In this document: one piece after another, positions 4,297 through 19,739 of the stretch
How positions within the stretch are numbered: the first letter of the stretch is position 1
How the letters are laid out: each line of letters begins with the position of its first letter
Source of the DNA: an uncultured bacterium
Lineage (GTDB): Bacteria > Lernaellota > Lernaellaia > Lernaellales > Lernaellaceae
Direction of reading: 5' to 3'
DNA length: 19,739 nucleotides
Assembly (NCBI GenBank): GCA_964534375.1
Contig: CAZHPN010000117.1
Location: 1 to 19,739, forward strand
Translations under genes and position numbers: made by a program
Notes under the pieces: generated by a model
What the model saw: only the letters and a program-made list of their open reading frames with translations
What the model was told of the DNA's origin: nothing
The model's database searches: none

Positions 4297-4320
4297 GACG
4301 CCCGTAAATGGCGTCCCTAC
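4297..4320 (-). repeat. GTAG-type REP-like palindrome
   Basis: Minus strand reads GTAG-G-GACGCC-ATTTACG-GGCGTC. Confidence 0.45.
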
Positions 4321-5663
4321 GGCGTCAAACCCGCCGCCCGCATCGTGCGCACGGTTTCCGCAATGGCAGTGCGGGTCGACTTCGGCGTCAAATGACAATA
4401 ATCGACGAAGGCGTGCAGCACGTAGGGATCGCCGTCATCGCGGCTCGTGCGTTCGATGGCTTCGCGAATCTCGGCGAGCGGCGCGCCTTCCTCGGCGGCG
4501 ACTTCTCGGATCGCCCGGTTGAGCGACAACATGCTGCCCAGATTGCCGAAGACGCGTTCGCGTGCTTGCGAATAGGCGTCGATCGCCTGGTCGGTCTCCC
4601 CTAACGCTTCGTACGCTTGCGCCTGCACGTAACGCGGCAACGGCGCCTCCGGCTCGACAGCGATTACCGGCGCGAGCAGCGCCAGCGCCTCCCGCGGCCG
4701 CTTCGCGTCGATCGCCGTCGCCGCTTGCCTCACGGACCGCGCCAGCGTCTCCTGGTTGCGCTCGCCCGTGCGAATGCCAAGCGGCTGCCGCAGCATGTAA
4801 CATACCGGCAAGGTGATGCGAAACGGCAACGTCGTCAGCACGACGGGGATGTTTTTCGTTCGCGCGCGCCGGACGATCCATCGCAGGTTGTCCTGGAAAT
4901 TCCGCACGTAAGCGTCGCGAATGGGAAAGTAGCTCTGCGGATCGAACGCGCGGAAGCGGTCGTAGAGCATGCGCGTGCAATCGCGGCGGAACGGCGCGGC
5001 GTCCCATTGCTCGCGCATGGGGGGCTGCGACCATGGGAGAAAATCGCTGCGGTACAGGCGATGAAAAAAGAGCATCGAACGATAGATGCGGCTGTGCCGG
5101 CCGAGGAACCGCGACGCCTTCGCCCAGTCGACGCCGGCCACGACGCGCGTCAACGGGAAGTACCAGTGCAGAAATTCGTTGTTTCCCGAATAAACGATGA
5201 GCAGATCGACCTTGTAATTCGCGAGCAATGACGCGGCCGTCGCCGCCACCGCCTCGGAGTTCGCCGCGATGCGGCCGCAGTTGAAGACGCGGACGTTCGC
5301 CGGGTCCGCCAATTGGTGGATCAACACGCGGTCAAACGCGTCTTCGTGGCGTACGCCGACGCCGTACATGGCCGATCCGCCCAACAGAAAAATGTTGTTC
5401 CCGGCGCCTGCCGTCTCGTCCGGGGTCAGGAGCCGCCGGCCCTCGCCGTCGCGAACGGAAATCGGTTCGTTGCGTCGGGCGGCGTCCTCATATCGGGCCG
5501 CCGCCGTGGCCGCGTCCGGCGGCATTTCGTTGGCCGGCGTCGCCTGTTCCATTTCCGCGTAACGGAAGAAGAAGTGGAGCCCGATCTCCAACAGTGCCAG
5601 CGCCAGAATCAAGACGAACAGGGAATACCCTGCGAACCGCCAACGCGCGCCGCGATGCTTCAT
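4317..5663 (-). CDS. membrane-anchored SGNH/GDSL hydrolase-like protein with TPR insertion
   Basis: N-terminal TM; LLGGS (block I), VFNCG, YSGNNE (block III), FVDYCH (DxxH); TPR-like helices (AQAYEALGETDQAIDAYSQA). Confidence 0.8.
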   Translation of the reverse strand: MKHRGARWRFAGYSLFVLILALALLEIGLHFFFRYAEMEQATPANEMPPDAATAAARYEDAARRNEPISVRDGEGRRLLTPDETAGAGNNIFLLGGSAMYGVGVRHEDAFDRVLIHQLADPANVRVFNCGRIAANSEAVAATAASLLANYKVDLLIVYSGNNEFLHWYFPLTRVVAGVDWAKASRFLGRHSRIYRSMLFFHRLYRSDFLPWSQPPMREQWDAAPFRRDCTRMLYDRFRAFDPQSYFPIRDAYVRNFQDNLRWIVRRARTKNIPVVLTTLPFRITLPVCYMLRQPLGIRTGERNQETLARSVRQAATAIDAKRPREALALLAPVIAVEPEAPLPRYVQAQAYEALGETDQAIDAYSQARERVFGNLGSMLSLNRAIREVAAEEGAPLAEIREAIERTSRDDGDPYVLHAFVDYCHLTPKSTRTAIAETVRTMRAAGLTP

Positions 5664-8028: not shown

Positions 8029-8703
8029 ATGATTCGCTTCCACCGGGTCACCAAACGGTACGGCCCGCACACCTACGGCCTGCACGACGTTACCGCACAC
8101 ATTGCCAAGGGCGAGATGGCGTTTTTGTCCGGCCCCTCCGGCGCCGGCAAGACGACGTTTCTGCGGATGATTTACGCGGCAGAAACGCCTACGGACGGCC
8201 AGGTGCTCGTCGCCGGCCGCAACATTGCGAAACTGCGCGAATCGTCGATTCCATATCTGCGGCGCAACGTCGGCGTCGTGTTTCAGGACTTTCGCCTGCT
8301 GGCCGATCGCAGCGTCTTCGAAAACGTGGCCATGGCCCTCGAACCGCTCGCCACGCCGCGCGAACGGCTCCGGCAAAAAACGATGGCTGTGCTCGGCCAG
8401 GTCGGCATGCAGGTGAAAATCGACGAGAAGCCGAACGCGTTGTCCGGCGGCGAACAACAGCGCATCGCGATCGCGCGGGCGCTCGTCAACGAGCCGGCGA
8501 TCATTCTCGCCGACGAGCCGACTGGCAACCTCGACGCCGCCATGAGCCAGCAGATTTTCGACCTGCTGCGGGACATCAATCTGCGCGGCGCCACCGTGGT
8601 CGTCGCCTCGCACAACGATGACCTCGTGGCGCGGTACGCCCAACGCATCTTCCGCCTCGAACGCGGCCGCTTGACCGCGACGGCCGGCGAGGGCCGGCCG
8701 TGA
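8029..8703 (+). CDS. ftsE: cell division ATP-binding protein FtsE
   Basis: GPSGAGKTT Walker A, IPYLRRNVGVVFQDFRLL, LSGGEQQR, ILADEPTGNLD. Confidence 0.95.
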   Translation: MIRFHRVTKRYGPHTYGLHDVTAHIAKGEMAFLSGPSGAGKTTFLRMIYAAETPTDGQVLVAGRNIAKLRESSIPYLRRNVGVVFQDFRLLADRSVFENVAMALEPLATPRERLRQKTMAVLGQVGMQVKIDEKPNALSGGEQQRIAIARALVNEPAIILADEPTGNLDAAMSQQIFDLLRDINLRGATVVVASHNDDLVARYAQRIFRLERGRLTATAGEGRP

Positions 8704-9605
8704 GAGACGTGGTGTACGGGCTGTTCGGCCGCACGTGGCGCAATCTCCGCGCCGATTGGTGGGCCAACGTCAGCACGGTCTTTGCGGTCGGCCTGGCGAT
8801 GTCGATCCCGCTCGTGTTCGCGCTGCTCGCCTGGAACCTGGGGCGATTGGTCGATTCCTTCATCGGTCACCTTGAGGTCGTCGCCTACATCTCCGTCGAC
8901 GCCGCCGACACGCAGATTGCCGCGGCCGCCGAGCGCATCCGGCAGATGCCGCCGGTGGAAACGGTGACCGTCGTCACGCGCGAGCAGGCGCTCCAGCGGT
9001 TCGTCGAAGAAATGCCCGACGCCGCGGGGGTGGCGCACGAATTGGGCGACAACCCGCTGCCGCCGAGTTTGGAAATCGTGCTGCGCCCGGCCTACCGCGA
9101 TCTGCCGCCGACCGCCGACTTCACGGCCCAGATCGCCCGGCTGCCCGGCGTGGTCGAGGTGGACGACGGCCGCCAATGGATCGGCCGGCTCAATCGCGTG
9201 CTTCGCTACCTGTGGATGATCACCCTGTTCATGGGTTTGTTTCTCACGCTGGCCTCGGCCTTGCTGGTCGGCCACGCGATTCGGTTGGCGATTTATCGGC
9301 GGCGCGAGGAAATCGGCATCTACCGGTTGGTGGGCGCGACGAATCGGTTTATCCGCGGTCCGTTGCTGTTTGAAGGCTTTGTCCAAGGCGCCGCCGGGGC
9401 GGCAGTCGGTCTGGCGATCTGCGGGGCGTTGTACCGGTACGTCGCGCATCGGCTGCAAACGGGGGATTCGCTGCAACATTGGCTGCTCGGCGGGCCCGAC
9501 CCGCGGTGGTTTCCGCCGCTGATTGTGGCCGCGGCCGCGGCGATCGGCGGTCTGCTCGGGTTGATTGGCTCGTTCGCCTCGACCCGCCGCTTCCTGAGGA
9601 TCTAG
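8700..9605 (+). CDS. ftsX: cell division permease FtsX
   Basis: NPLPPSLEI, RREEIGIYRLVGATNRFIRGPLLFEG; GTGA overlap with ftsE. Confidence 0.95.
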   Translation: MRDVVYGLFGRTWRNLRADWWANVSTVFAVGLAMSIPLVFALLAWNLGRLVDSFIGHLEVVAYISVDAADTQIAAAAERIRQMPPVETVTVVTREQALQRFVEEMPDAAGVAHELGDNPLPPSLEIVLRPAYRDLPPTADFTAQIARLPGVVEVDDGRQWIGRLNRVLRYLWMITLFMGLFLTLASALLVGHAIRLAIYRRREEIGIYRLVGATNRFIRGPLLFEGFVQGAAGAAVGLAICGALYRYVAHRLQTGDSLQHWLLGGPDPRWFPPLIVAAAAAIGGLLGLIGSFASTRRFLRI

Positions 9606-9610
9606 AACCG

Positions 9611-9682
9611 ATGGCGAATGCGAAAAGGGGAACGAAACGCGCGGCGGCGTTCCGCGTTCCGCATTCGCCATTCGCCATTCTC
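9611..9682. repeat. inverted repeat plus heptamer tandem repeats in the envC 5' end
   Basis: ATGGCGAATGCG (9611-9622) vs CGCATTCGCCAT (9660-9671); cgttccg-cgttccg-cattcgc-cattcgc-cattctc at 9648-9682. Confidence 0.75.
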
Positions 9683-10801
9683 CTGCTGCTGGCGGCGCTG
9701 CTGAGCGCGTCGCTGGCGCGGGCGCAGGCGCCGGACGCCGAGGTGGAAAAACGCGTCGCGGCGGAAAAAGACAAACTGCGCGCTGCGATGCACGCCGAGC
9801 AAGGGGCGCTGCGCCAGATTTACGCGATCGACGCCGTGCGATTTCAGCACGAACGGCAATTGCGCCAAGCCAACGACGGTCTGCGCCAGGTGGAAGCCGA
9901 GATCGCCGACGACCAGGCGACGGCCGCCCGGCTCGAAGCCGATTTGCCGATTCGCGGGGCGCACCTGGCCGCGCGCCTGGCGAGCCTCTACCGCATGGGC
10001 CGCGGCGGCTTCTGGAAAGTCTTGTTCTCGAGCGATTCCTACCGGTCCTTTGCGCGGCGTTACCGGGCGCTGCACCGCGTCGTGCAGGCCGACGCCGAGG
10101 CGTTGTCGATGCATCGGGCGCAATTGCTGGCGTTGCGCAGCCGGCGCGACGCGCTCCGGCAACGGCAGGCCCGGCTGGCCGCGTTGCGCGAACAAGCGAA
10201 ACGGGAAATGCTCGACATCGAGGTCGAGAAGCGGAAGAAAACGTTTCTGCTCGACGAGATTCGCGGCAACAAGACGGTCGCCGCCGGGCTCGCCCGCGAT
10301 TTGGCGAAGCAAGACGCCGCCGTCGGCCGCGCCGTCGCGAACCTGGCGCCGGCAGCTTCGCCGCCGAGCGCGGACCGGCCGCCGCTCCTTGACTTTGCGC
10401 AACGCCGGGGTATGCTGCCGACCCCGGTCGCGGGGCCGATTGTGGGGCGTTTCGGCACGCGGTTGCACGAGGAATTCGGCACGCAGACGCGGTCCAACGG
10501 CATCGACATCGGCGCGCCGGCCGGCGCGCCGGTGCGGTCGGTGGCCGAGGGCGTGGTCAGCTACATCGGCGAGTTTCTCGGGTACGGTCGCGTGCTGATC
10601 GTCGATCACGGGCAGCGGTATCACACGCTGTACGCCCATCTGGGCAATTTTGCGCACGCGAAGGGCGATGTCGTTCACCAGGGCGACGTGCTCGGTTCAG
10701 TGGGCGCCGCGGGTTTGTACGCCGAACCCGCGTTGCATTTTGAGATACGTTACAAAGGGGCGGCGATCGATCCCCTCGAATGGTTGTCGCCGTCGCCCTG
10801 A
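9611..10801 (+). CDS. envC: murein hydrolase activator EnvC family (coiled coil + M23 domain)
   Basis: Signal peptide, coiled coil, NGIDI...GYG..LIVDHG..YHTLYAHL...LHFEIR; position after ftsEX. Confidence 0.85.
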   Translation: MANAKRGTKRAAAFRVPHSPFAILLLLAALLSASLARAQAPDAEVEKRVAAEKDKLRAAMHAEQGALRQIYAIDAVRFQHERQLRQANDGLRQVEAEIADDQATAARLEADLPIRGAHLAARLASLYRMGRGGFWKVLFSSDSYRSFARRYRALHRVVQADAEALSMHRAQLLALRSRRDALRQRQARLAALREQAKREMLDIEVEKRKKTFLLDEIRGNKTVAAGLARDLAKQDAAVGRAVANLAPAASPPSADRPPLLDFAQRRGMLPTPVAGPIVGRFGTRLHEEFGTQTRSNGIDIGAPAGAPVRSVAEGVVSYIGEFLGYGRVLIVDHGQRYHTLYAHLGNFAHAKGDVVHQGDVLGSVGAAGLYAEPALHFEIRYKGAAIDPLEWLSPSP

Positions 10802-10815
10802 TTCCGGAGGAATTC

Positions 10816-12141
10816 ATGTCCCGATCCGCGAAGAAAATCGTCGCTCTGCTTATCGTCGTCTCGGCGGTCATGTGCGGTTGGTACGGCGCCGCCCGCGCCG
10901 TGCAGGCGCTGGCGCCGGACGCCCCGGAGTGGGTCCACATCTTCACGGACGTCCTGGGGATCGTGCACGCCAAGTACGTCGAGGACGTATCGCTCCGCGA
11001 TTTGGTTTACGACGCGCTCGACGGCATGCTCACGCACCTGGATCCGCACAGCGCGTTCATGAAACCCGAGGAAATGCAGGAGTTCGTCAACGATACGCGC
11101 GGCTCGTTCGACGGCCTGGGCATCGAAATCACGGTGCGCGACAACTACATCCTGATCGTCAGCCCGATCGACGGCTCGCCCGCGGCCGACGCCGGCCTGC
11201 AGCCGGGGGACTACATCGTCAAAATCGAAAAGGAATCGACCCGCGGTTTGTCGAGCCTCGACGCCGTGAAAAAACTGCGCGGCAAAGCGGGCACGAAAGT
11301 GAAAATTCAGGTGTGGCGCAAAGGCTGGAGCGAGCCGAAGCCCTTTGAGTTGACGCGCGCGCCGATCACCGTGCAGACGATCCGCAGCAAGTCGCTGGAC
11401 AAGGGCTACGGGTACGTCAAAATCACGCAATTCAACCAGACGACCGCCGATAATCTGCGCGACGCGCTCAAAGGCCTCGAGAAGGCCAACGGCAAGCTCG
11501 ACGGTCTGGTTCTCGATTTGCGCAACAACCCGGGCGGCCTGCTCGACCAGGCGATCGCGGTGTCGGACATGTTCGTCGCCTCCGGCCCGATCGTCTTCAC
11601 GCGCGGCCGCGGCGCCTCGCAAGAGTTCGCCGCCGCCGCCTCCGGGACGGCGTCCTACCGCGACGTCCCGATGACGGTGCTGATCAACGCCGGCAGCGCC
11701 AGCGCGTCGGAAATCGTCGCCGGCTGCCTGCAGGATCATCACCGCGCCGTGTTGATCGGCGAACGCAGCTTCGGCAAGGGTTCGGTGCAAACGATCATCC
11801 CGCTCTCGGACGGCAGCGGCCTGCGCCTGACCATCGCGAAGTATTACACGCCGGCGGGCCGCGACATTCAGGCCAAAGGCATCGATCCCGATCTGGCGGT
11901 CGGCGGCGAGCCGTGGTCCGGTCTCGATGAGAACCAGAAAAAATTGATTCGCGAGGCCGACCTCGAACACCATCTCCAAGGCGCGGGCGAAGGCCCGCCG
12001 GTCGGCGGCGAAAGTCCGATCGTTCCCGAAGACGAGGGCAAGAAGGAAAAACAACCCGCGGGAGATCCGCAACTCGACATGGCGCTGCACGTATTGAAAG
12101 CCTGGCCGGCCTTCCAAAAGGCCGCCACGCCCGCCAAATAA
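10816..12141 (+). CDS. ctpA: S41 family carboxyl-terminal processing protease
   Basis: GGAGG RBS; LDPHS, PDZ GLGIEI, LDLRNNPGGLL, SASASEI, GKGSVQ, GIDPD. Confidence 0.92.
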   Translation: MSRSAKKIVALLIVVSAVMCGWYGAARAVQALAPDAPEWVHIFTDVLGIVHAKYVEDVSLRDLVYDALDGMLTHLDPHSAFMKPEEMQEFVNDTRGSFDGLGIEITVRDNYILIVSPIDGSPAADAGLQPGDYIVKIEKESTRGLSSLDAVKKLRGKAGTKVKIQVWRKGWSEPKPFELTRAPITVQTIRSKSLDKGYGYVKITQFNQTTADNLRDALKGLEKANGKLDGLVLDLRNNPGGLLDQAIAVSDMFVASGPIVFTRGRGASQEFAAAASGTASYRDVPMTVLINAGSASASEIVAGCLQDHHRAVLIGERSFGKGSVQTIIPLSDGSGLRLTIAKYYTPAGRDIQAKGIDPDLAVGGEPWSGLDENQKKLIREADLEHHLQGAGEGPPVGGESPIVPEDEGKKEKQPAGDPQLDMALHVLKAWPAFQKAATPAK

Positions 12142-12146
12142 AGCCG

Positions 12147-13460
12147 ATGCTCGACCGGCGCCGGTCCACTTGGCTCGACCGCGTTGGGCGGCAATTGGCC
12201 GGCGCCCCGCCGTCGGTCCGTTTCGCCGTCGCCGTGGCCGGTCTGATTTTCTTTCTCGGCGTCTCGTCGCTGGCGTGGACGGTCGCCGCGGCCCGCCTGG
12301 CGCCGCTCGTCGAAGCCAGCCTGGCCGAGGCGCCCGCGGCCGACGAAACGCGGCCGGCGGCCGCCGGGGCCGCCGAAACGTTCGCCCAGCGCATCGAACG
12401 CGTGACCGACATCGCCAACGGCGTTTTCCTGGATCTGGGCCTGTCGCGGGCCAATTTTCTGACGCGCTATGCCGATCCGCGGCAGTTCGGCGCGCGCAAA
12501 TTCGACTTCATCGTTTGGGAAGTGTGGGTGGCGCCGGATTTCGACGTCACGCAATTGCTCGACCGCCTGCGCGGCAACAAACGCGTCACGGCGGAAAACG
12601 CGCGCCTGGAGAGCGAGCGGATCGACGAAAAGACCGTGGTCGTCAAAGTCTTCCTCGACGGCATCCAAACCCACCAATTGCTGTTCACGAACGCGGCGCA
12701 GGAAGCGCCCGACGGCGCGCGCGTGATGCTGGCCAACGCCCCGGCCGACGCGACGAAAATCGACATCGCCGCCATCCCCCTGGTCAAATATGCGGGGGCG
12801 CCGCGGCTGGCGATCGTCATCGACGACATCGGCTTCCGCGACGCGGTCGACCGGCTGTTCCTGACGTTGCCCGCCAAGGTGACGTTCAGCGTCCTGCCCT
12901 ACGGGCCGACCTCGCAACAGACGGCGGCGCTCGCGCGGCAGCGCGGCCACGAGGTGATGCTGCACTTGCCGATGCAGCCGCTCGACATGCAGGCGCACGA
13001 CCCGGGCGCCGGCAAGTTGCTGTTGTCGATGTCCGCGGCCGAAATTCGCGGGATCGTCGAGAAGGATCTCCAGGAGTTGCCGGACGTCGTTGGCGTCAAC
13101 AACCACATGGGCAGCGCGTTCACGCGCAACCTCGAGAAAATGCAGGCCGCCCTCGGCCCGATCAAGGAACACAACCTGTTCTTCCTCGACTCGCTGACGA
13201 TCGGCAATTCGGTCGCGTTTCGCGCGGCCAAACTTTCCGGCGTGCGCGCCGCGGTCCGCAATTTATTCCTCGATTACGATCCGCGGCTCGAAGCCATCCA
13301 GCGGCAGGTCGATCTGGCGGGCCGCATCGCGCGGGCGCAGGGGCAAGCCATCGTCATCGGCCACCCGTTCCAAAACACCTTCCAGGCGCTGCAGGAAGGT
13401 TTGCCCAAGCTGCTCGCCGACGGCATCGAAATCACACCGGTCGGGCAACTAGCGCAATAG
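12147..13460 (+). CDS. divergent polysaccharide deacetylase family protein (YibQ-like)
   Basis: LAIVIDDIG, EVMLHLPMQP, GVNNHMGS, FFLDSLT, IVIGHP; N-terminal TM. Confidence 0.92.
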   Translation: MLDRRRSTWLDRVGRQLAGAPPSVRFAVAVAGLIFFLGVSSLAWTVAAARLAPLVEASLAEAPAADETRPAAAGAAETFAQRIERVTDIANGVFLDLGLSRANFLTRYADPRQFGARKFDFIVWEVWVAPDFDVTQLLDRLRGNKRVTAENARLESERIDEKTVVVKVFLDGIQTHQLLFTNAAQEAPDGARVMLANAPADATKIDIAAIPLVKYAGAPRLAIVIDDIGFRDAVDRLFLTLPAKVTFSVLPYGPTSQQTAALARQRGHEVMLHLPMQPLDMQAHDPGAGKLLLSMSAAEIRGIVEKDLQELPDVVGVNNHMGSAFTRNLEKMQAALGPIKEHNLFFLDSLTIGNSVAFRAAKLSGVRAAVRNLFLDYDPRLEAIQRQVDLAGRIARAQGQAIVIGHPFQNTFQALQEGLPKLLADGIEITPVGQLAQ

Positions 13461-13461
13461 A

Positions 13462-13541
13462 AGGCTGCGAGGCTGAGGGACTGAACGGCTGAGAGGTCGA
13501 TCGAACCCTTTCAGCCTCGCAGTCTTTCAGCCTCTCAACCT
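13462..13541. repeat. octamer tandem repeats in inverted arrangement between convergent genes; possible terminator
   Basis: aggctgcg/aggctgag/ggactgaa/cggctgag followed by tttcagcc/tcgcagtc/tttcagcc/tctcaacc. Confidence 0.7.
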
Positions 13542-13546
13542 GTTTT

Positions 13547-14167
13547 TCACCCTTCCACCCGCTTCCGCATCGTCTTGACGATGTTCGGCAAATCTCTTTT
13601 GGTGAGATAGTCCTCGATCGTTTTCGGCACCGCGCGGCCGGTGTCCACCGACACGGTGTAATACACGATCGTGCCGTCTTTGTAAGGCTTGAGGCCCCAA
13701 AAGCCGTCGGTGCCGGCGATGTCGTTTTTCTTCGTTTTGTCGAGGGTCCAGGTGATGACGCCGTTCGCGCGATCCACCTTGTGCGTCAGATAGTACGAGA
13801 GTTTGACGAACGCCACTTCGATCTTGAAATTGACATCGACCTGGGCGTCGGTGCGGGTGTACACCTCCGCGGATTTGACGTGCGGCATGAACTGCGGGTA
13901 GTCCTCGTATTTGAGGATCGTATCGATGATCTTGTCTTTGCCCGTCTTGATGTAGCCGATGGCGAGGCCGCCGCCGCGCGTCCGGCCTTGCGCATCCTGG
14001 AACGTCCGGCTTTCGAGAATGATTTCGCCGCTCTCGATTTTGGCGAGATCGGCCGGATTCAGGTCGCGCATTTGCGGGGTCTGCTGCGCGGGCGCAAACC
14101 GCGGCGCGACGCAAATCGCCAGAATCGCCAGCGCGGCGAAGATCGTCAGAAACGCCTGCTTGCTCAT
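13547..14167 (-). CDS. secreted SRPBCC/START (polyketide cyclase-like) domain protein
   Basis: AAAGGA RBS before ATG 14167; signal peptide; YEDYPQFMPHVKSAEV, ITWTLD, GFWGL. Confidence 0.85.
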   Translation of the reverse strand: MSKQAFLTIFAALAILAICVAPRFAPAQQTPQMRDLNPADLAKIESGEIILESRTFQDAQGRTRGGGLAIGYIKTGKDKIIDTILKYEDYPQFMPHVKSAEVYTRTDAQVDVNFKIEVAFVKLSYYLTHKVDRANGVITWTLDKTKKNDIAGTDGFWGLKPYKDGTIVYYTVSVDTGRAVPKTIEDYLTKRDLPNIVKTMRKRVEG

Positions 14168-14201
14168 AACGCATCCTTTCAAAGGGTTCGAACGTCGCGC
14201 G

Positions 14202-14229
14202 ATTGTAAGGGAAACGAGGAATTCGTCAA
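14202..14229 (-). promoter_or_regulatory. putative sigma70 promoter for the SRPBCC gene
   Basis: TTGACG-16 nt-TACAAT. Confidence 0.6.
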
Positions 14230-14255
14230 TTCGGGACGCGCGACACGGTGGGCCT

Positions 14256-14301
14256 CGTCACTCAATCGGTTCGATGCTCGGTCCGTGCGGCGTGTCGCTG
14301 A
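14256..14301. repeat. direct repeat copy 1 (duplicate of cysS-like 3' end)
   Basis: 35 bp identical (14267-14301 = 14985-15019); extends to 46 bp with 3 mismatches and includes the TGA. Confidence 0.95.
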
Positions 14302-14302
14302 C

Positions 14303-14337
14303 TTGACGCAACCGCTACGGTAATCTATTGTGTTACC
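14303..14337 (+). promoter_or_regulatory. TA promoter with overlapping operator-like inverted repeat
   Basis: TTGACG-17 nt-TATTGT; GGTAA(14319-14323)...TTACC(14333-14337) brackets the -10. Confidence 0.6.
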
Positions 14338-14352
14338 CACGGGGGGGCTCGG

Positions 14353-14628
14353 ATGCGCATCAAAGACTTCGACTGGGATGACGGGAATGAGCTGCATTTG
14401 GCCCTCGGTCACGGGATCGAACCCGAAGAAGCTGAGGAGGTCCTCGCGCTGGCGCCCGTGGTTCGGAAGACCAAGAAAGACCATTATGCAGGCTTTGGGC
14501 GCACGGCGGCCGGCAGGCTGTTGGTGATCGTCTTCGAAATGCGCGAGGCGGGACGCGTCCGGGTCATCACTGGCTGGGACATGCGGGACGCCGAACGCCG
14601 TTATTATCGGCAGCGGCGGAAAGGATAG
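14353..14628 (+). CDS. brnT: BrnT family toxin
   Basis: FDWDDGNELHL..HGI...EAEEV, GRT..GRLLVIVF, RVRVITGWDM...ERRYY. Confidence 0.9.
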   Translation: MRIKDFDWDDGNELHLALGHGIEPEEAEEVLALAPVVRKTKKDHYAGFGRTAAGRLLVIVFEMREAGRVRVITGWDMRDAERRYYRQRRKG

Positions 14629-14631
14629 AAA

Positions 14632-14934
14632 ATGAAAAAGAAGACTGAAAAGCAAGCAGATACTGCGGCCTACTATGACCGCCGCGGCGTGCTGGGTGAA
14701 CTGGAAGAAAAGCCGGTTGAATTCGCGCTGGAAGAGGAATTGCGCGAGCAAATCTTAAATGGCCAACGGAAGCGCCGGCTGAAGAACGTGTCCGTAAAAC
14801 TCGACGAGGCGCAAATTATTGCACTGCGAAAAATTGCCACGCTTCGATCCATCCCGTACCAGACTCTGATTCGGCAGTGGCTTTCGGAAGGGATCGCTAA
14901 GGAACTGCATCTGGGCCGTCGGCGCGGGAAATAA
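14632..14934 (+). CDS. BrnA/CopG-like RHH antitoxin
   Basis: C-terminal KNVSVKLD......LRKIA....IPYQTLIRQWL; directly follows brnT. Confidence 0.85.
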   Translation: MKKKTEKQADTAAYYDRRGVLGELEEKPVEFALEEELREQILNGQRKRRLKNVSVKLDEAQIIALRKIATLRSIPYQTLIRQWLSEGIAKELHLGRRRGK

Positions 14935-14973
14935 GACGCCGCAGGATTGCCGACCGCGATTAGTATTCGGCGG

Positions 14974-15019
14974 CGTCATTCGACCGGTTCGATGCTCGGT
15001 CCGTGCGGCGTGTCGCTGA
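14974..15019. repeat. direct repeat copy 2 (3' end of cysS-like CDS)
   Basis: Matches 14256-14301. Confidence 0.95.
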
Positions 15020-16379
15020 TCTGGAAGCCGCGCTGGCGCAATTCGTCGCGGATCGCGTCGGCGGCAGTGTAATCGCCGGCGGCGCGGGCCGTTTCCCGGC
15101 GGGCCAGCAATTCCTCGATTTCGCGATCGAGTTGGTCGTCGGCGAAATCGAAGACGCCGAGCACCGCATCGATGCGGTAGAGCGTGGCCAGGGCGTCGCG
15201 GGCGTCGGCGCGCGACAGCGGCTGTTCGGCTTGCAGGGCGTTGGTCTTGCGCACGAAGTCGCCGAAGACGGCCATCGCCGCGGAAATGTTGAGATCGTCG
15301 TCGAGCGCGGCGAAGAAATCGCTCTCGGCCTTCATCGCCAGCGCGGCCAGTTCGGGATGCCGTTTGGCGCCGCGCGCATGCCTGAGGCGGCGGGCGAACC
15401 CGTCGATCCGTGCGAGCGCCGCGCGGGCCTGCTCGAGGCCCTCCTCGCTGTATTGCAGCGGCTGGCGGTAGTGGCACGAAATCATCCAGAAGCGCAGCAG
15501 CCGGCCGTCGAAACCGGCCTCGCGCAGGTCGCGCACGGTTTTCATGTTGCCGGAAAAGGCGCTCATTTTCTTGCCGCCGGCGTACACCAATTCGCTGTGC
15601 AGCCACGTGTGCGCGGGCGGCTGGCCGGTCAGCGCGGAAACGATCGCGATCTCGTTCTCGTGGTGCGGAAACGCCAGATCGCGGGTCGATACGTGCAGAT
15701 CGAATTTCAGGCCGAGGTAGTGCGTGCTCATCGCGGCGCACTGCACGTGCCACCCGGGCCGCACGTTTCCCCATTCCGACTTGACGCCGATGCCGCGCCG
15801 CAACTCGGCCAGGTCGCAGCGCTTGAACATGACGAAATCCCGCGGGTCGTCCTTCTCGTAGTCGTCCAGGTCGACCGTGGAGCCCACGCGGATTTTATCC
15901 GGATTGACGCCCGAGAACCGGCCGTAGCCGCGCGTCTTGCTCACGTCGAAGTAGACGTTGCGCAGCATCTCGTAACAGTAACCCGCCTGCATCAGCTTGC
16001 GGGTGAGTTCCAGCATTTGCTCGATGTGGTCGCTCGTGCGCGGCGTGTAATCGGCGGGCAGCACGCCCAGCGTCTCCATGTCGTCGAAAAACGCCTGCTC
16101 GAAGCGGCGCGTGTGCGTCCGCAGGTCTTCGCCGGCCTCGGCGCTGGCGGCGATCGTGCGGTCGTCGAGATCGGTGATGTTCATGACGTGCACGACGCGG
16201 TAACCGCGCACGAGCAGCACGCGCTTGATCAGGTCGTTGACGACGATCCGCCGCGCCAGGCTCAGGTGCACGTGCGCATCCACCGTCGGGCCGTCGGCGT
16301 ACATCTTGACCACGCCCGGTTCGAGCGAGTGAAACGTCTGCACGCGGCGCGTCAGCACATTGCGGAATTTCAGGGCCAT
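14976..16379 (-). CDS. cysS: cysteinyl-tRNA synthetase-like protein with degenerate catalytic motifs
   Basis: GPTV, NITD, RPGWH..C, FPHHENE, HYR.PL, DDDLN, AADAIRDEL retained; HIGH becomes HLSL, KMSKS becomes KMSAF, MYVCG becomes MYADG. Confidence 0.85.
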   Translation of the reverse strand: MALKFRNVLTRRVQTFHSLEPGVVKMYADGPTVDAHVHLSLARRIVVNDLIKRVLLVRGYRVVHVMNITDLDDRTIAASAEAGEDLRTHTRRFEQAFFDDMETLGVLPADYTPRTSDHIEQMLELTRKLMQAGYCYEMLRNVYFDVSKTRGYGRFSGVNPDKIRVGSTVDLDDYEKDDPRDFVMFKRCDLAELRRGIGVKSEWGNVRPGWHVQCAAMSTHYLGLKFDLHVSTRDLAFPHHENEIAIVSALTGQPPAHTWLHSELVYAGGKKMSAFSGNMKTVRDLREAGFDGRLLRFWMISCHYRQPLQYSEEGLEQARAALARIDGFARRLRHARGAKRHPELAALAMKAESDFFAALDDDLNISAAMAVFGDFVRKTNALQAEQPLSRADARDALATLYRIDAVLGVFDFADDQLDREIEELLARRETARAAGDYTAADAIRDELRQRGFQISDTPHGPSIEPVE

Positions 16380-16391
16380 ACCGCCGTACCC

Positions 16392-16811
16392 CTAACGACT
16401 GGTGTTCGGTCGCGCCAACGCCTCGAGAACGGCGTGGCGCGCCATTTCGGCAAGCCGCACAGCTTCGACGGCGTCGTCCTCCGACAACGACGGCAAATCT
16501 CCGGGATAGCGGTCGGTGACGCTACACGGATCCAGCGCGGTGCATTCCTGCAACGATGCGGCCAGCGCCGGGTCGGCTTCCGCCGGCAAATCGAGCAACA
16601 GACCCAGCATGTGCGTTTTCGGGAACTCAATCTCGTGGGCCGCCAGCGCTGCCGTGAGGTGTTTTTCCACTGACTGTTGCGCGTGAAAACCGATCGCCGC
16701 AAGATACGGCGTGTTCTCACTCAATAAAAAAGCGGCGACGCGGTAGTCCTCGTCGGCTTTGACCAGCCGCTGTTGAACAAGTTCGGCGCGGACCTGTTCA
16801 AGCGGCTTCAT
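16392..16811 (-). CDS. HEPN domain protein
   Basis: KADEDY..A, FHAQQSVEK.L, FPKTH.L..L, DRYP; start overlaps the MNT 3' end. Confidence 0.88.
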   Translation of the reverse strand: MKPLEQVRAELVQQRLVKADEDYRVAAFLLSENTPYLAAIGFHAQQSVEKHLTAALAAHEIEFPKTHMLGLLLDLPAEADPALAASLQECTALDPCSVTDRYPGDLPSLSEDDAVEAVRLAEMARHAVLEALARPNTSR

Positions 16812-17118
16812 AAATGACGACGCCTTTCTTGTTGGCGGGAAACGCAATCCCGCCGATCACATCCTTGGTTTCCTCAAAGCGCTCGGCCGTCATGACGATG
16901 ACGTCGAACGGCACACCCATTCCGCGCAGCGCATTGAGGATTCGCACCGTCTCGCCCCGCGGGTCGAAGGCGCCGTTTTCGAGAACCAGCAAGTCAATGT
17001 CGCTATCGTCGTTCGTCTCGCCCGCGGCGGCCGAGCCGAATAAAATAATTCGCGCCGGTTGGGCCACGCCCGTGATGCGGCGAACGATTTCGTTTTTCAG
17101 CGCGGGATCGACGCCCAT
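16798..17118 (-). CDS. minimal nucleotidyltransferase (MNT)
   Basis: ILFGS-X10-DIDLLV and PFDVIV motifs. Confidence 0.9.
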   Translation of the reverse strand: MGVDPALKNEIVRRITGVAQPARIILFGSAAAGETNDDSDIDLLVLENGAFDPRGETVRILNALRGMGVPFDVIVMTAERFEETKDVIGGIAFPANKKGVVIYEAA

Positions 17119-17202
17119 CGTGATTCGCCTTTCGCCTAACGTCCAAGTTAATGCCAAAGTTTTTGTAGAATAAATCCGAACGCTTGGCAACCTGAACGCG
17201 GC

Positions 17203-18117
17203 CTACGCCGCGGGGCTCGGAAACAGATTCGTCGACAGATACCGTTCGCCGCCGTCGGCCAGCAAGACGACGATCAGGCCGCTCGCGATTTCCTTCGCCT
17301 TTTCGAGCGCGAGCCACATCGCGGCGCCGCTGCTCATGCCGCACAGCAGGCCCTCTTCGCGCGCGAGGCGGCGCGTCGTGGCGTACGCGTCTTCGTCCTG
17401 CACGATGCGTTTTTCGTCGACGGCCTTTTTGTTCCAGATGCCCGGCACGTACGCCTCTTTGAGGCTCTTCAGGCCCTGAATCTTGTGCCCGATCTTCGGC
17501 TCGGCGGCGACGATCTGCACCGCCGGGTTTTGTTCCTTAAGATAGCGCGAAACGCCCATCACCGTGCCAGTCGTGCCGATCGCGCCGACGAAATGCGTCA
17601 CCTGGCCGTCCGTCTGGCGCCAGATTTCCGGTCCGGTGCCGCGATAATGCGCCAGCGGATTGGCCTCGTTGTTGTACTGATCGACCAATGCGAATTTGCC
17701 GTCCTTGTCGGCGCGCTCCATCTCGTAGACCCGCTCGATCGCGCCGTCGGTGCCCAGCTCGCCGGGCGTTAACAAAAACTCCGCTCCGTAGGCCGCGAGA
17801 ATTTTACGCCGTTCGACGCTGACGCTTTCGCTCATCGCCAGCAGGCAGCGATAGCCTTTGAGCGTGCAAACCATCGCCAGGCCGATGCCCGTGTTGCCGC
17901 TCGTGGCTTCGAGCACGGTCATGCCGGCTTTCAGCTTGCCGCTCTGTTCGGCGGCTTCCACCATCGCCAGGCCGATGCGGTCTTTGACCGACCCGCCCGG
18001 ATTGGCGCCTTCGAGCTTGGCGAGAATCGTCACGCGCGGATTCGGATTCATCCGCCGAATCTCCGCGACGGGCGTCTTGCCGATCAGGTCCAGCACGTGC
18101 GGCTGTAACTTTTCCAA
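17203..18117 (-). CDS. cysM: PLP-dependent cysteine synthase (CysK/CysM family)
   Basis: IGKTP, KLEGANPGGSVKDR, EATSGNTG, GTTGT, GMSSGA, DGGERYLS; TTG start 18117 with GGAG RBS; CysM vs CysK assignment tentative. Confidence 0.88.
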   Translation of the reverse strand: MEKLQPHVLDLIGKTPVAEIRRMNPNPRVTILAKLEGANPGGSVKDRIGLAMVEAAEQSGKLKAGMTVLEATSGNTGIGLAMVCTLKGYRCLLAMSESVSVERRKILAAYGAEFLLTPGELGTDGAIERVYEMERADKDGKFALVDQYNNEANPLAHYRGTGPEIWRQTDGQVTHFVGAIGTTGTVMGVSRYLKEQNPAVQIVAAEPKIGHKIQGLKSLKEAYVPGIWNKKAVDEKRIVQDEDAYATTRRLAREEGLLCGMSSGAAMWLALEKAKEIASGLIVVLLADGGERYLSTNLFPSPAA

Positions 18118-18152
18118 ATTCGCTCCGTTGGCTTTCGGTTTTCGATGGCTAC

Positions 18153-18161
18153 AGTATAGCA
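18153..18161 (-). promoter_or_regulatory. extended -10 element upstream of cysteine synthase
   Basis: TGcTATACT on the minus strand. Confidence 0.45.
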
Positions 18162-18221
18162 GAACGATGGGGCGTTGGACGGCCCGCTCGTTGCAAAAAA
18201 ACTTCATATCGGAGGCGCAGC

Positions 18222-19493
18222 GTGGAGGACACTTCTCGGACGACGAGCAAAAGCGGCCTGACCATACACGAGCATCGGCGAAAAGATTATCGGCGCGTAT
18301 CGCCGCCGGCCGTAAAAACCGGCCGGAGGGCGCGCGACGTCATCGCGTTGATTGTCTTCGCGGCGGCCGTCGCCGCCGTGGAGATCGGGTTCTTCCACGC
18401 GGATCCCTTGCTGACGCCGCTGATGAAATTCGTGCGGGCGGCCATGATTCTGCTGCTCCCCTGCGCCGCAATCGCCGCGGGCTGGCTCTACATCAACGTG
18501 CGCCGCGGCCTCGTGTCGAAGATGGCTGTCGCCGGGCTGATCTTTGCCGCGTCTCTCTTTGTGCTGCTGGCGACGCCGACCGCGATGACCATCCGCGACT
18601 ACCGCCTCGAAACCAACCTGTCGAATTACCATCCGTTTCTGCAGGTCTCGCCGCCGGACTACCAAGACCGGCCCGCGCCCGTCGGTCAAACGCCCGTGAA
18701 GATTTTCTGCCTCGGCGGCTCGACCACGGAATTCAGCGACAACCACGGCCGGCGCTGGACGGGTCTTCTCGAATCCGAATTGCAGGATCGCTATCGCGGC
18801 AAAGCCGTCCAGGTCTACAACTTCGGCAAACAGTGGTACACAACCGAGCACTTGCTCATCAATTACACGATCAATCTGCGACAGCACAAACCCGACGTGG
18901 TCGTGGTCATGGAGGCCATCAACGACCTCCTGCCCAACGCCGATTTCTCGAATCTCAGCATCGGCCCGTTCCGCGACGACTACCGCCACTTCGTCGGGCC
19001 GCTCTACCGGGTGCTGCAGCGCGAGACTTTCTGGGGGAACGCGATCGAGATCGGCTCGCGCATCTGGTACAGCCATCCGCGGCAGGTCATCGAGACCGAT
19101 CATTTCCCCGGCCTCGCGCCCTATGAGCGCAATCTGCGCACCTTGATCGCCTACGCCCGCGCCGACGGGGTCAAGGTGGTCTTGATGACGCAGCCGACGT
19201 TGCTCAAGGAATCGATGACCCCGCAGGAGCAGGCCGTCTTGATCATGGCGAATTTCGAGGCCGTCGGCCCGACGAAGCGCTGGAGCCGCCAGACCGCGTG
19301 GCGCGGCATGACCCAGTACGACGACGCGGTTCGCCGCGTGGCCCAGCAGGAGGGCGTGCGCCTGATCGACCTGGATCGGGCGATCCCGAAAACGACGGAA
19401 TATTTTTCCGACGACGTTCACTACCACGGCATCGCCATGACCAAAATCGCCGACGTCATCGCCGGAGAATTCCAGAAACAACACATCCTATAA
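18222..19493 (+). CDS. membrane-anchored SGNH/GDSL hydrolase family protein
   Basis: GGAGG RBS before GTG; three TM helices; CLGGSTT, VYNFG, AINDL, FSDDVH. Confidence 0.85.
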   Translation: MEDTSRTTSKSGLTIHEHRRKDYRRVSPPAVKTGRRARDVIALIVFAAAVAAVEIGFFHADPLLTPLMKFVRAAMILLLPCAAIAAGWLYINVRRGLVSKMAVAGLIFAASLFVLLATPTAMTIRDYRLETNLSNYHPFLQVSPPDYQDRPAPVGQTPVKIFCLGGSTTEFSDNHGRRWTGLLESELQDRYRGKAVQVYNFGKQWYTTEHLLINYTINLRQHKPDVVVVMEAINDLLPNADFSNLSIGPFRDDYRHFVGPLYRVLQRETFWGNAIEIGSRIWYSHPRQVIETDHFPGLAPYERNLRTLIAYARADGVKVVLMTQPTLLKESMTPQEQAVLIMANFEAVGPTKRWSRQTAWRGMTQYDDAVRRVAQQEGVRLIDLDRAIPKTTEYFSDDVHYHGIAMTKIADVIAGEFQKQHIL

Positions 19494-19698
19494 GTCGGTT
19501 TTGGCGCCGAGCGTCCGGCACAAGCGAGGGCGCGCTGCGGAGGCGTGTGACATATGAGCCTCTTGCACAAATACCGGCTCAAGGCGCGACCCGTCGCACC
19601 GACCCCTCCCCGACGCGGCATAGGCTTTAGGATTAAGAGCGGCGATGCTTCAAATGGCGCAGAATTGCGCTCTTTGTTGGTCGTGCAGACCTCTCCCC

Positions 19699-19726
19699 GG
19701 AAATTTCGGCTCCCGCCGAAATTTCC
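19699..19726. other. perfect 12-bp hairpin
   Basis: GGAAATTTCGGC-TCCC-GCCGAAATTTCC. Confidence 0.7.
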
Positions 19727-19739
19727 TGCCCCTCCCCGA

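Follow-up and report, generated by a model that had tools for sequence, protein, structure and literature searches.

A cysteine synthase-like gene and a degenerate CysRS-like gene of an uncultured Lernaellaceae bacterium correspond to the halves of a fusion protein and may encode a two-subunit cysteine module

Why does a gene for a degenerate cysteinyl-tRNA synthetase (CysRS) lie on the same strand as a gene for a cysteine synthase, with only a toxin-antitoxin (TA)-like pair between them? This arrangement is found in contig CAZHPN010000117.1 of assembly GCA_964534375.1, from an uncultured bacterium of the family Lernaellaceae; the whole stretch of 19,739 nt was analysed and is referred to here as the window. 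The original prediction, made from the sequence of the window, held that the two genes, were the TA pair taken away, would lie side by side or be fused, and that they might represent an undescribed coupling. We show here that, judged by sequence, both window proteins are orthologous to the halves of a CysM/CysRS-like fusion. We propose that the two genes encode the subunits of a split form of this widespread fusion and that the CysRS-like subunit would bind cysteine to control the synthase or to receive its product, a reading to which, taken as a whole, we give a probability of roughly 0.55. No description of such a fusion or pair was found in the literature searched, subscription journals being outside its scope, and passages of PMC2922099, PMC8762117, PMC5388404 and PMC9437257 make no mention of a synthase/CysRS fusion.

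The relatives of the two proteins answer the first part of the question. Of the 120 homologues closest to the CysRS-like protein, 94 are fusions of at least 700 aa (about 760-800) that match both PF00291 and PF01406, with the PALP half at the N-terminus, in the same order as the window genes, and a linker of only ~10 residues after GERYLST.LF. All 10 fused loci that were scanned contain PALP, tRNA-synt_1e and DALR_2 in one open reading frame (ORF), nine of them also CysS_C, and locus L026 is an eleventh. The CysRS-like protein is 44-52% identical to the fusions. The CysM-like protein shares 54-68% identity (median 60%) with the PALP halves of 96 fusion proteins, compared with only 44-45% with the two other CysK/M genes of its own genome. 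The closest relatives of the window CysRS-like protein are unfused homologues (53-88% identity). In all five same-family genomes with the pair (G001, G002, G004, G005 and G007) a distance of 1-4 nt separates the cysM-like stop from the CysRS-like start, and no MNT-HEPN pair lies between the genes; in three of them (G002, G005 and G007) a GGAGG is located within the cysM-like 3' end. The expectation that the genes would be adjacent or fused without the TA pair is thus borne out in both of its forms.

Gene content points the same way. The CysRS-like gene (at least 54% identity) occurs in seven of 41 related genomes, and the CysM-like orthologue (at least 66% identity, the next best match being 51%) occurs in exactly the same seven, counts that are not independent given that the 41 genomes are related to each other. 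Two same-family genomes without the paralogue, G003 (98% complete) and G006 (84%), have no CysK/M beyond the generic type, the identities being 48% and 45%. Given fusion, adjacency and strict co-occurrence, an evolutionary and genetic coupling of the two genes is highly probable; linkage of the homologues to cysteine synthase in other genomes, on which the original prediction had staked itself, is found.

These observations also bear on the possibility that mere chance made the two genes neighbours, or that the CysRS-like gene is a functionless duplicate in decay. Degenerate motifs, and two TA cassettes that landed around the gene, would fit such a history. However, it is contradicted by the fusions, the adjacency and the co-occurrence, and also by the intact frame of 467 aa, which is 88% identical to its nearest homologue, P0002, by 42 invariant columns across 76 CysRS-like sequences, and by the insertion of the second cassette, which duplicated the 3' end of the gene and left its frame whole. 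The dN/dS values, estimated by the NG86 (Nei-Gojobori) method because maximum-likelihood estimates were unstable (one value being 0.76), are 0.22 and 0.21 for the CysRS-like gene against G004 and G001, 0.16 for the CysM-like gene against G004, and, in the comparison of the closely related G007 and G005, 0.08 and 0.06 for the CysRS-like and the CysM-like gene, respectively. Purifying selection acts on both genes, neither of which is decaying, and we regard a chance or relic pairing as exceedingly improbable.

In the phylogeny, the paralogue family is separate from canonical CysRS (SH-aLRT, the Shimodaira-Hasegawa-like approximate likelihood ratio test, 99-100) and the unfused forms make up one clade (SH-aLRT 100). 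A larger quick tree nests this unfused clade among the fusions. In an approximately unbiased (AU) test on a 37-row subset, a single fused clade was not rejected (lnL difference 11.2, p-AU 0.19), so that fission and one ancestral fusion are both compatible with the data. A single polypeptide is in any case not a feature of all members, as there are two genes here and in one unfused clade. A 793-aa open frame in G031 was considered as a further fusion and discarded: the longest ORF there has 646 aa, with a C-terminal CysRS match and no CysM-like match.

What kind of CysRS, then, is kept beside the synthase? The protein scores 276.9 bits for tRNA-synt_1e, 31 for DALR_2 and 32.1 for CysS_C, and it barely passes TIGR00435 (355.7 bits, cut-off 340), compared with 555.7 bits for the canonical cysS of the same genome (contig C115), to whose product it is 35% identical. 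Against this canonical copy the degeneracy that had been predicted was confirmed: HVGH of the HIGH motif is HLSL, KMSKS is KMSAF and lacks the second lysine, and the zinc ligand equivalent to Cys28 is Asp (YADGP, canonical YVCGV). The equivalents of C209, H234, E238 and W205 are all present, and Asp at position 28 could still bind metal. We take C28, C209, H234, E238 and W205 to be the zinc/cysteine pocket residues on the basis of the E. coli structure. The anticodon-binding domain is also retained, with R428, D441, R444 and D456 invariant, including in the canonical copy; these are presumably the anticodon contacts seen in the E. coli CysRS-tRNA structure.

Scoring these motifs over the 120 nearest homologues gives the same picture for the family. 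At the fourth HIGH position, where canonical representatives have H or N, no member has His (L in 49, E in 22, N in 21), and the second KMSKS lysine is mostly replaced (R in 55, G in 14, E in 12). The pocket is kept: C209 in 114 of 120, H234 in 120, E238 in 115 and W205 in 114, with the Cys28 equivalent being C in 104 and D in the 16 members of the window protein's clade. In addition, the family carries a signature in the form of a segment that is 4 residues longer, F(T)L(F)KRxxLxELKRGI, directly before WH.EC, which canonical CysRS does not have. In the window protein this insert is KRCDLAELRRG (residues 186-196), and K186, R187 and L190 are invariant across the 76 sequences. Of the 60 best representative clusters, from a search at 50% clustering in which the family is reduced to few representatives, 17 have the insert, 16 of these without a KMSK motif, and (K/R)M(S/A)K is retained in the other 43, which have no insert.

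A canonical cysS (511-584 bits) is present in addition to the paralogue (358-449 bits) in all of 10 further genomes, as it is in the window genome; in G002 this canonical copy is divided into two pieces, each on a contig of its own. The CysRS-like subunit is an accessory paralogue and not the housekeeping synthetase. It resembles canonical CysRS in having the Rossmann catalytic domain, DALR_2 and CysS_C and in keeping FPHHENE, WH.EC and the C-terminal R/D residues, and its solved matches among canonical CysRS are 8QHP (305 bits), 3TQO and the E. coli structures 1LI5/1U0B (268 bits). It differs in HLSL, KMSAF, Asp28 and the 4-residue insert, and in always occurring together with a canonical copy and coupled to a dedicated CysM-like enzyme.

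A protein of this build might still be an ATP-dependent ligase with non-canonical motifs, through which newly made cysteine is channelled onto tRNA-Cys or an MshC-like acceptor; in sulfide-rich anaerobic settings such channelling would protect or prioritise cysteine. The whole CysRS architecture with its zinc/cysteine pocket and anticodon domain has been retained, the TIGR00435 cut-off is still passed, some members combine HLGN with KMSRS, HxGN occurs as a normal form of the HIGH motif in many canonical CysRS of the representative search, and the interface predicted below adjoins the cysteine pocket. Set against these points, the window clade has HLSL or HLGL with KMSAF, thus lacking the second His/Asn and the second Lys, and the window protein lacks the Gly as well; several fusions have no recognisable KMSKS, and 16 of the 17 insert-bearing representatives lack KMSK. 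Furthermore, canonical CysRS is present in every carrier examined, the MshC model gives 182 bits against a cut-off of 485, and genes for making an acceptor are not conserved near the fused loci. We therefore regard a ligase as unlikely.

The partner, in contrast to the degenerate subunit, looks like a working pyridoxal phosphate (PLP)-dependent cysteine synthase by its motifs. It exceeds the cysteine synthase cut-off (TIGR01136 cysKM, 364.7 bits against 344.15; PALP, 225.8 bits) and stays under that of the cysM equivalog (364.6 against 394.2). Both the PLP lysine in GGSVKDR and the TSGNTG loop are present, and the best solved match is E. coli CysM (2BHS, 282.9 bits). Within the ORF (17203-18207), the likely start is a TTG at 18117 with GGAG 6 nt upstream, giving 304 aa and agreeing with the N-termini of relatives; the alternative is an ATG at 18207. 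Position 18117 is also where the original prediction had the module end. One of the other two CysK/M genes adjoins a cysE-like gene on contig C28, so the ordinary cysteine pathway is located apart from the pair. As a separate observation, the PLP-lysine motif is SIKAR or SVKAR and not S(V/I)KDR, Ala replacing Asp after the PLP lysine, in loci L105, L106 and L107 (of G007, G005 and G002, one genus) and in fusion P0113.

If the two proteins correspond to the halves of a fusion, do they also touch each other? Complex prediction, which had been suggested as a check, gave an ipSAE (interaction prediction score from aligned errors, the model's own confidence) of 0.61 as the median of three runs, compared with 0.00 for the best control. 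Scores at this mark were obtained for 116 of 157 solved complexes and for 2 of 215 mismatched pairs. At least 91% of contacts are shared between the runs, and the partner pLDDT (predicted local distance difference test) is at least 87. On the CysRS-like side the predicted contacts are residues 139, 187-191, 193-194, 196 and 205, that is, the region of the family-specific insert, and the predicted interface lies beside the cysteine/zinc pocket. On the CysM-like side they are residues 127-128, 131, 134-135, 146, 148-149, 209, 220-221 and 223-226; across the partner subtype, I127, E128, Y131, D146, N149, Y223 and P225 do not vary. These contacts fall in the segments GTDGAIE, DQYNN and KEAYVPG, which differ from those of the genome's generic CysK and which we take, from CysK structures, to surround the active-site entrance. 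The prediction thus makes physical contact of the two proteins likely. A sequence search of the PDB with the CysRS-like protein matched only CysRS and MshC chains, and we know of no solved complex of a CysM/CysRS-like kind.

The proposed explanation combines these elements. The ancestral state in the bacterial family would be a translationally coupled gene pair, into which two TA cassettes were inserted secondarily without damage to either gene, MNT-HEPN inside the pair and BrnT/BrnA at the CysRS-like 3' end. The CysRS-like subunit would have lost the class I ATP motifs while keeping the zinc/cysteine pocket (with Asp for Cys28) and the anticodon-binding domain. In the predicted complex, its KRxxLxELKRG loop would dock at the entrance to the synthase active site, and the pseudo-synthetase may then bind the cysteine made by the synthase, and possibly tRNA-Cys, and in the bound state control the synthase or take over its product, as the HisZ-HisG pair would suggest by analogy. 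Cysteine or tRNA sensing, regulation and the loss of aminoacylation are what we infer here, and this mechanism, a cysteine-binding and perhaps tRNA-Cys-binding pseudo-synthetase that controls the synthase or receives its product, is put forward tentatively. In a more specific form, the CysRS-like subunit would work as a protein sensor for the charging of tRNA-Cys and for free cysteine, switching the synthase on or off, which we consider doubtful. If true, however, a sensor sitting on the active-site mouth would couple the synthesis of an amino acid to the state of its cognate tRNA, much as a T-box does but at the protein level.

Several points weigh against this reading. The ipSAE of 0.61 expresses the model's own confidence and was obtained with alignments that contained fusions in both chains, which is outside the calibration of the tool, and the predicted interface would still have to be compatible with the short fusion linker. 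In G012, of the same class, the pair is unlinked: the CysRS-like (54% identity) and CysM-like (66%) genes are on separate contigs (C122 and C201), with an unrelated gene upstream of the CysRS-like one, so that the partners are co-retained there without linkage. Around the fusions lie housekeeping genes of various kinds (DciA upstream in 3 loci; thymidylate kinase and SurE in 2), which give no hint of a pathway. The loss of aminoacylation is read from the motifs, and some class I synthetases function with atypical motifs. The 21 family members with Asn at the fourth HIGH position often have KMSRS, and fused members with HLGN and KMSRS may still be active, in which case the family would not be uniformly dead. 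Finally, the reading of the C-terminal residues as anticodon contacts is carried over from the E. coli structure.

How does the proposed module compare with known systems? HisZ, a paralogue of HisRS, is a regulatory subunit of the ATP phosphoribosyltransferase HisG and is described as being without adenylation activity in the part of PMC9437257 that concerns it. HisZ-HisG is the best functional analogy, as in both cases a synthetase paralogue would be paired with a biosynthetic enzyme of the same amino acid, but the synthetase class and the enzyme partner are different, and the CysRS-like partners are fused in most lineages. HisZ is also without an anticodon domain, which the window CysRS-like protein keeps. 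MshC, the Cys:GlcN-Ins ligase of mycothiol synthesis, would be similar in its descent from CysRS, in its role outside translation and in binding cysteine. In contrast, the window protein fails TIGR03447 (182.2 bits, cut-off 485.1), and the solved MshC chains 8HFM and 3C8Z align to residues 20-325 only, MshC being without the C-terminal anticodon domain that is kept here. MshC is moreover actinobacterial and retains working ATP motifs. With regard to the predicted interface, CysK-CysE and other CysK partner complexes have the partner protein engage the active-site mouth of the synthase. The predicted contacts on the DQYNN and KEAYVPG loops at this mouth resemble those of CysK-CysE, except that the partner is a CysRS paralogue and the contact would be made through an internal loop and not a C-terminal tail.

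A further comparison, with CysRS*, bears on the idea that the CysRS-like subunit serves as a tRNA-Cys scaffold. In this case the PLP enzyme would convert a precursor on the tRNA to Cys-tRNA, in a manner similar to SepRS/SepCysS, or the pair would take part in recoding as CysRS* does. The conserved residues of the anticodon domain and the presence of tRNA-Sec in the genome are compatible with this, and the beta-replacement chemistry of CysM would suit a phosphoseryl or acetylseryl ester. However, neither SepRS nor SepCysS is found over cut-off in the 94%-complete genome, which argues against an on-tRNA phosphoserine route, and the genome has one tRNA-Cys(GCA) and one tRNA-Sec, neither of them in the window. 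According to the part of PMC9437257 that deals with it, CysRS* of some Desulfobacterales charges SelC* tRNA with Cys, has no anticodon domain and is linked to SelC*/SelB*. It resembles the present family in that related anaerobes have it as a non-canonical CysRS in addition to their normal one, but going by that description the CysRS-like family differs in keeping the anticodon domain, in being linked to CysM and in having no tRNA gene, nor any SelC*/SelB* neighbour, nearby. We consider a tRNA-scaffold function very improbable.

Reactive sulfur offers another possible role, in which the CysRS-like subunit would be a cysteine persulfide synthase or carrier, or a donor of sulfur to the synthase. 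Persulfide synthase activity has been reported for CARS-type CysRS, and CysM-type enzymes accept larger sulfur nucleophiles. A thiol-binding zinc pocket that is kept while the ATP motifs decay would fit this role, as would a partner most like CysM (2BHS), and among the matches listed the family is common in metagenome-assembled genomes labelled as sulfur-cycling Desulfobacterota lineages. However, in the family (K/R)TIx stands in place of the canonical KIIK-type motif and the lysine of KMSKS is missing, and we take the KIIK-type and KMSKS lysines to be the PLP-binding lysines of the reported persulfide synthase activity. This role thus appears quite improbable, and we prefer the split synthase/pseudo-CysRS module.

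The interest of such a module would lie first in the family itself, which is large, is labelled 'cysteine--tRNA ligase' in databases (a mislabel) and travels with its own cysteine synthase. Synthetase paralogues with other tasks (HisZ, MshC, GluQRS and CysRS*) have each opened a piece of biology. Here, nature provides an independent split, whose halves stay together as genes, adjacent in five genomes and unlinked but co-retained in one, and a natural two-subunit system offers separable subunits. The predicted interface, a loop found only in the family, next to the cysteine pocket and placed on invariant residues of the synthase mouth, would be a specific and testable one.

We turn to the locus itself, whose features are collected in Table 1. 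Gene reading and family scans confirmed that the cysM-like gene (SVKDR) and the cysS-like gene are on the same strand and are parted by the MNT-HEPN pair only. The order of transcription on the minus strand is CysM-like, MNT, HEPN, CysRS-like, with 85 nt from the cysM-like stop to the MNT start and 12 nt from the HEPN stop to the CysRS-like ATG. The absence of an obvious terminator between the two genes also held up: the sole terminator-like minus-strand site is a weak one at 16711-16695, inside HEPN, in a scan that overall found 9 sites compared with 5.6 +/- 2.6 in shuffles. No Rfam families or tRNA genes were found in 13400-19739.

Table 1. Genes and cassettes at the cysM-like/CysRS-like locus, in window coordinates.
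Feature	Position	Strand	Assignment
CysM-like cysteine synthase, PLP fold type II, dedicated partner subtype	17203..18117	-	PALP + TIGR01136, PLP lysine motif
MNT-type nucleotidyltransferase, antitoxin-like, first TA-cassette gene	16798..17118	-	NTP_transf_2, Polbeta
HEPN-domain protein, toxin-like	16392..16811	-	PF05168
CysRS-like paralogue, 467 aa, all CysRS domains	14976..16379	-	tRNA-synt_1e, DALR_2, CysS_C
Second inserted TA cassette, BrnT-like + CopG/BrnA-like, bracketed by direct repeats	14251..15019	both genes +	
BrnT-like	14353-14628	+	BrnT_toxin 32 bits (cut-off 34.5)
CopG/BrnA-like	14632-14934	+	CopG_antitoxin 26.5 bits (cut-off 28)
SRPBCC/polyketide-cyclase-like gene	13547..14182	-	Polyketide_cyc 32.8 bits

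The arrangement is not an assembly artefact, because it is bridged identically at both junctions by independent DNA. Run X2, from another sample and study than the possible source, yields a 1278-nt contig that equals 16241-17518 with 0 differences and spans the 3' end of the cysM-like gene, MNT, HEPN and the start of the CysRS-like gene. The same run also has a 912-nt contig that matches the cysM-like gene in its 3' part at ~92% identity and whose fit to the window ends at 17231; it may come from a related strain with other sequence after the cysM-like gene, possibly without the TA insert. The RNA libraries X5, X6 and X8, of three studies, contain exact-match contigs within 16693-17112 (MNT and HEPN) of 386 nt in X5, 171 nt in X6, and 151 and 208 nt in X8, and a further exact-match contig of X6, 235 nt long, falls within the cysM-like gene (17581-17815). 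Contigs in such libraries are no proof of transcription, DNA carry-over being possible, but those of MNT-HEPN in three metatranscriptome libraries are consistent with expression of the TA pair. In the three libraries, no contig covers the CysRS-like gene or bridges either junction.

The MNT gene has an ATG start and encodes a GS...DIDL motif, with 36.9 bits for NTP_transf_2 (PF01909) and 30.6 for Polbeta, but only 29.7 bits for MntA_antitoxin (cut-off 60). HEPN matches PF05168 at 56 bits and its ATG overlaps the MNT end. By their adjoining, overlapping ends the two genes form an MNT-HEPN pair, with a toxin activity that is putative. PADLOC gave only weak candidate-system matches for MNT, the cassette is single-copy in the genome, and no flanking repeats were found around it. 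It is a lineage-specific insertion, because none of the five same-family relatives has a TA pair between the genes. The second cassette is flanked by 51-nt direct repeats (14251-14301 and 14969-15019, family D3), which are 90% identical and duplicate the CysRS-like 3' end; the distal copy still codes for the C-terminal 13 residues of the CysRS-like protein, with PIE-stop in place of PVE-stop. This cassette thus entered at the 3' end of the CysRS-like gene and duplicated that end, with the result that the reading frame is intact. The two insertions are examples of TA cassettes inserting precisely at the gene boundaries of an operon without breaking it.

Downstream of the pair, the SRPBCC gene is a conserved neighbour within the bacterial family, located ~65-100 nt after the CysRS-like stop in relatives and found by tblastn at 50-65% identity in L103-L107. 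Further away, a cell-envelope cluster on the plus strand (8029-13460) contains an FtsE-like ABC ATPase, FtsX, an M23 peptidase and an S41 (Ctp) protease. It also holds a divergent polysaccharide deacetylase, and a deacetylase is near the pair in G005 too. Two GDSL-like lipase/acylhydrolase genes are located at 18222-19493 and 4317-5663, one of them divergent from the cysM-like gene.

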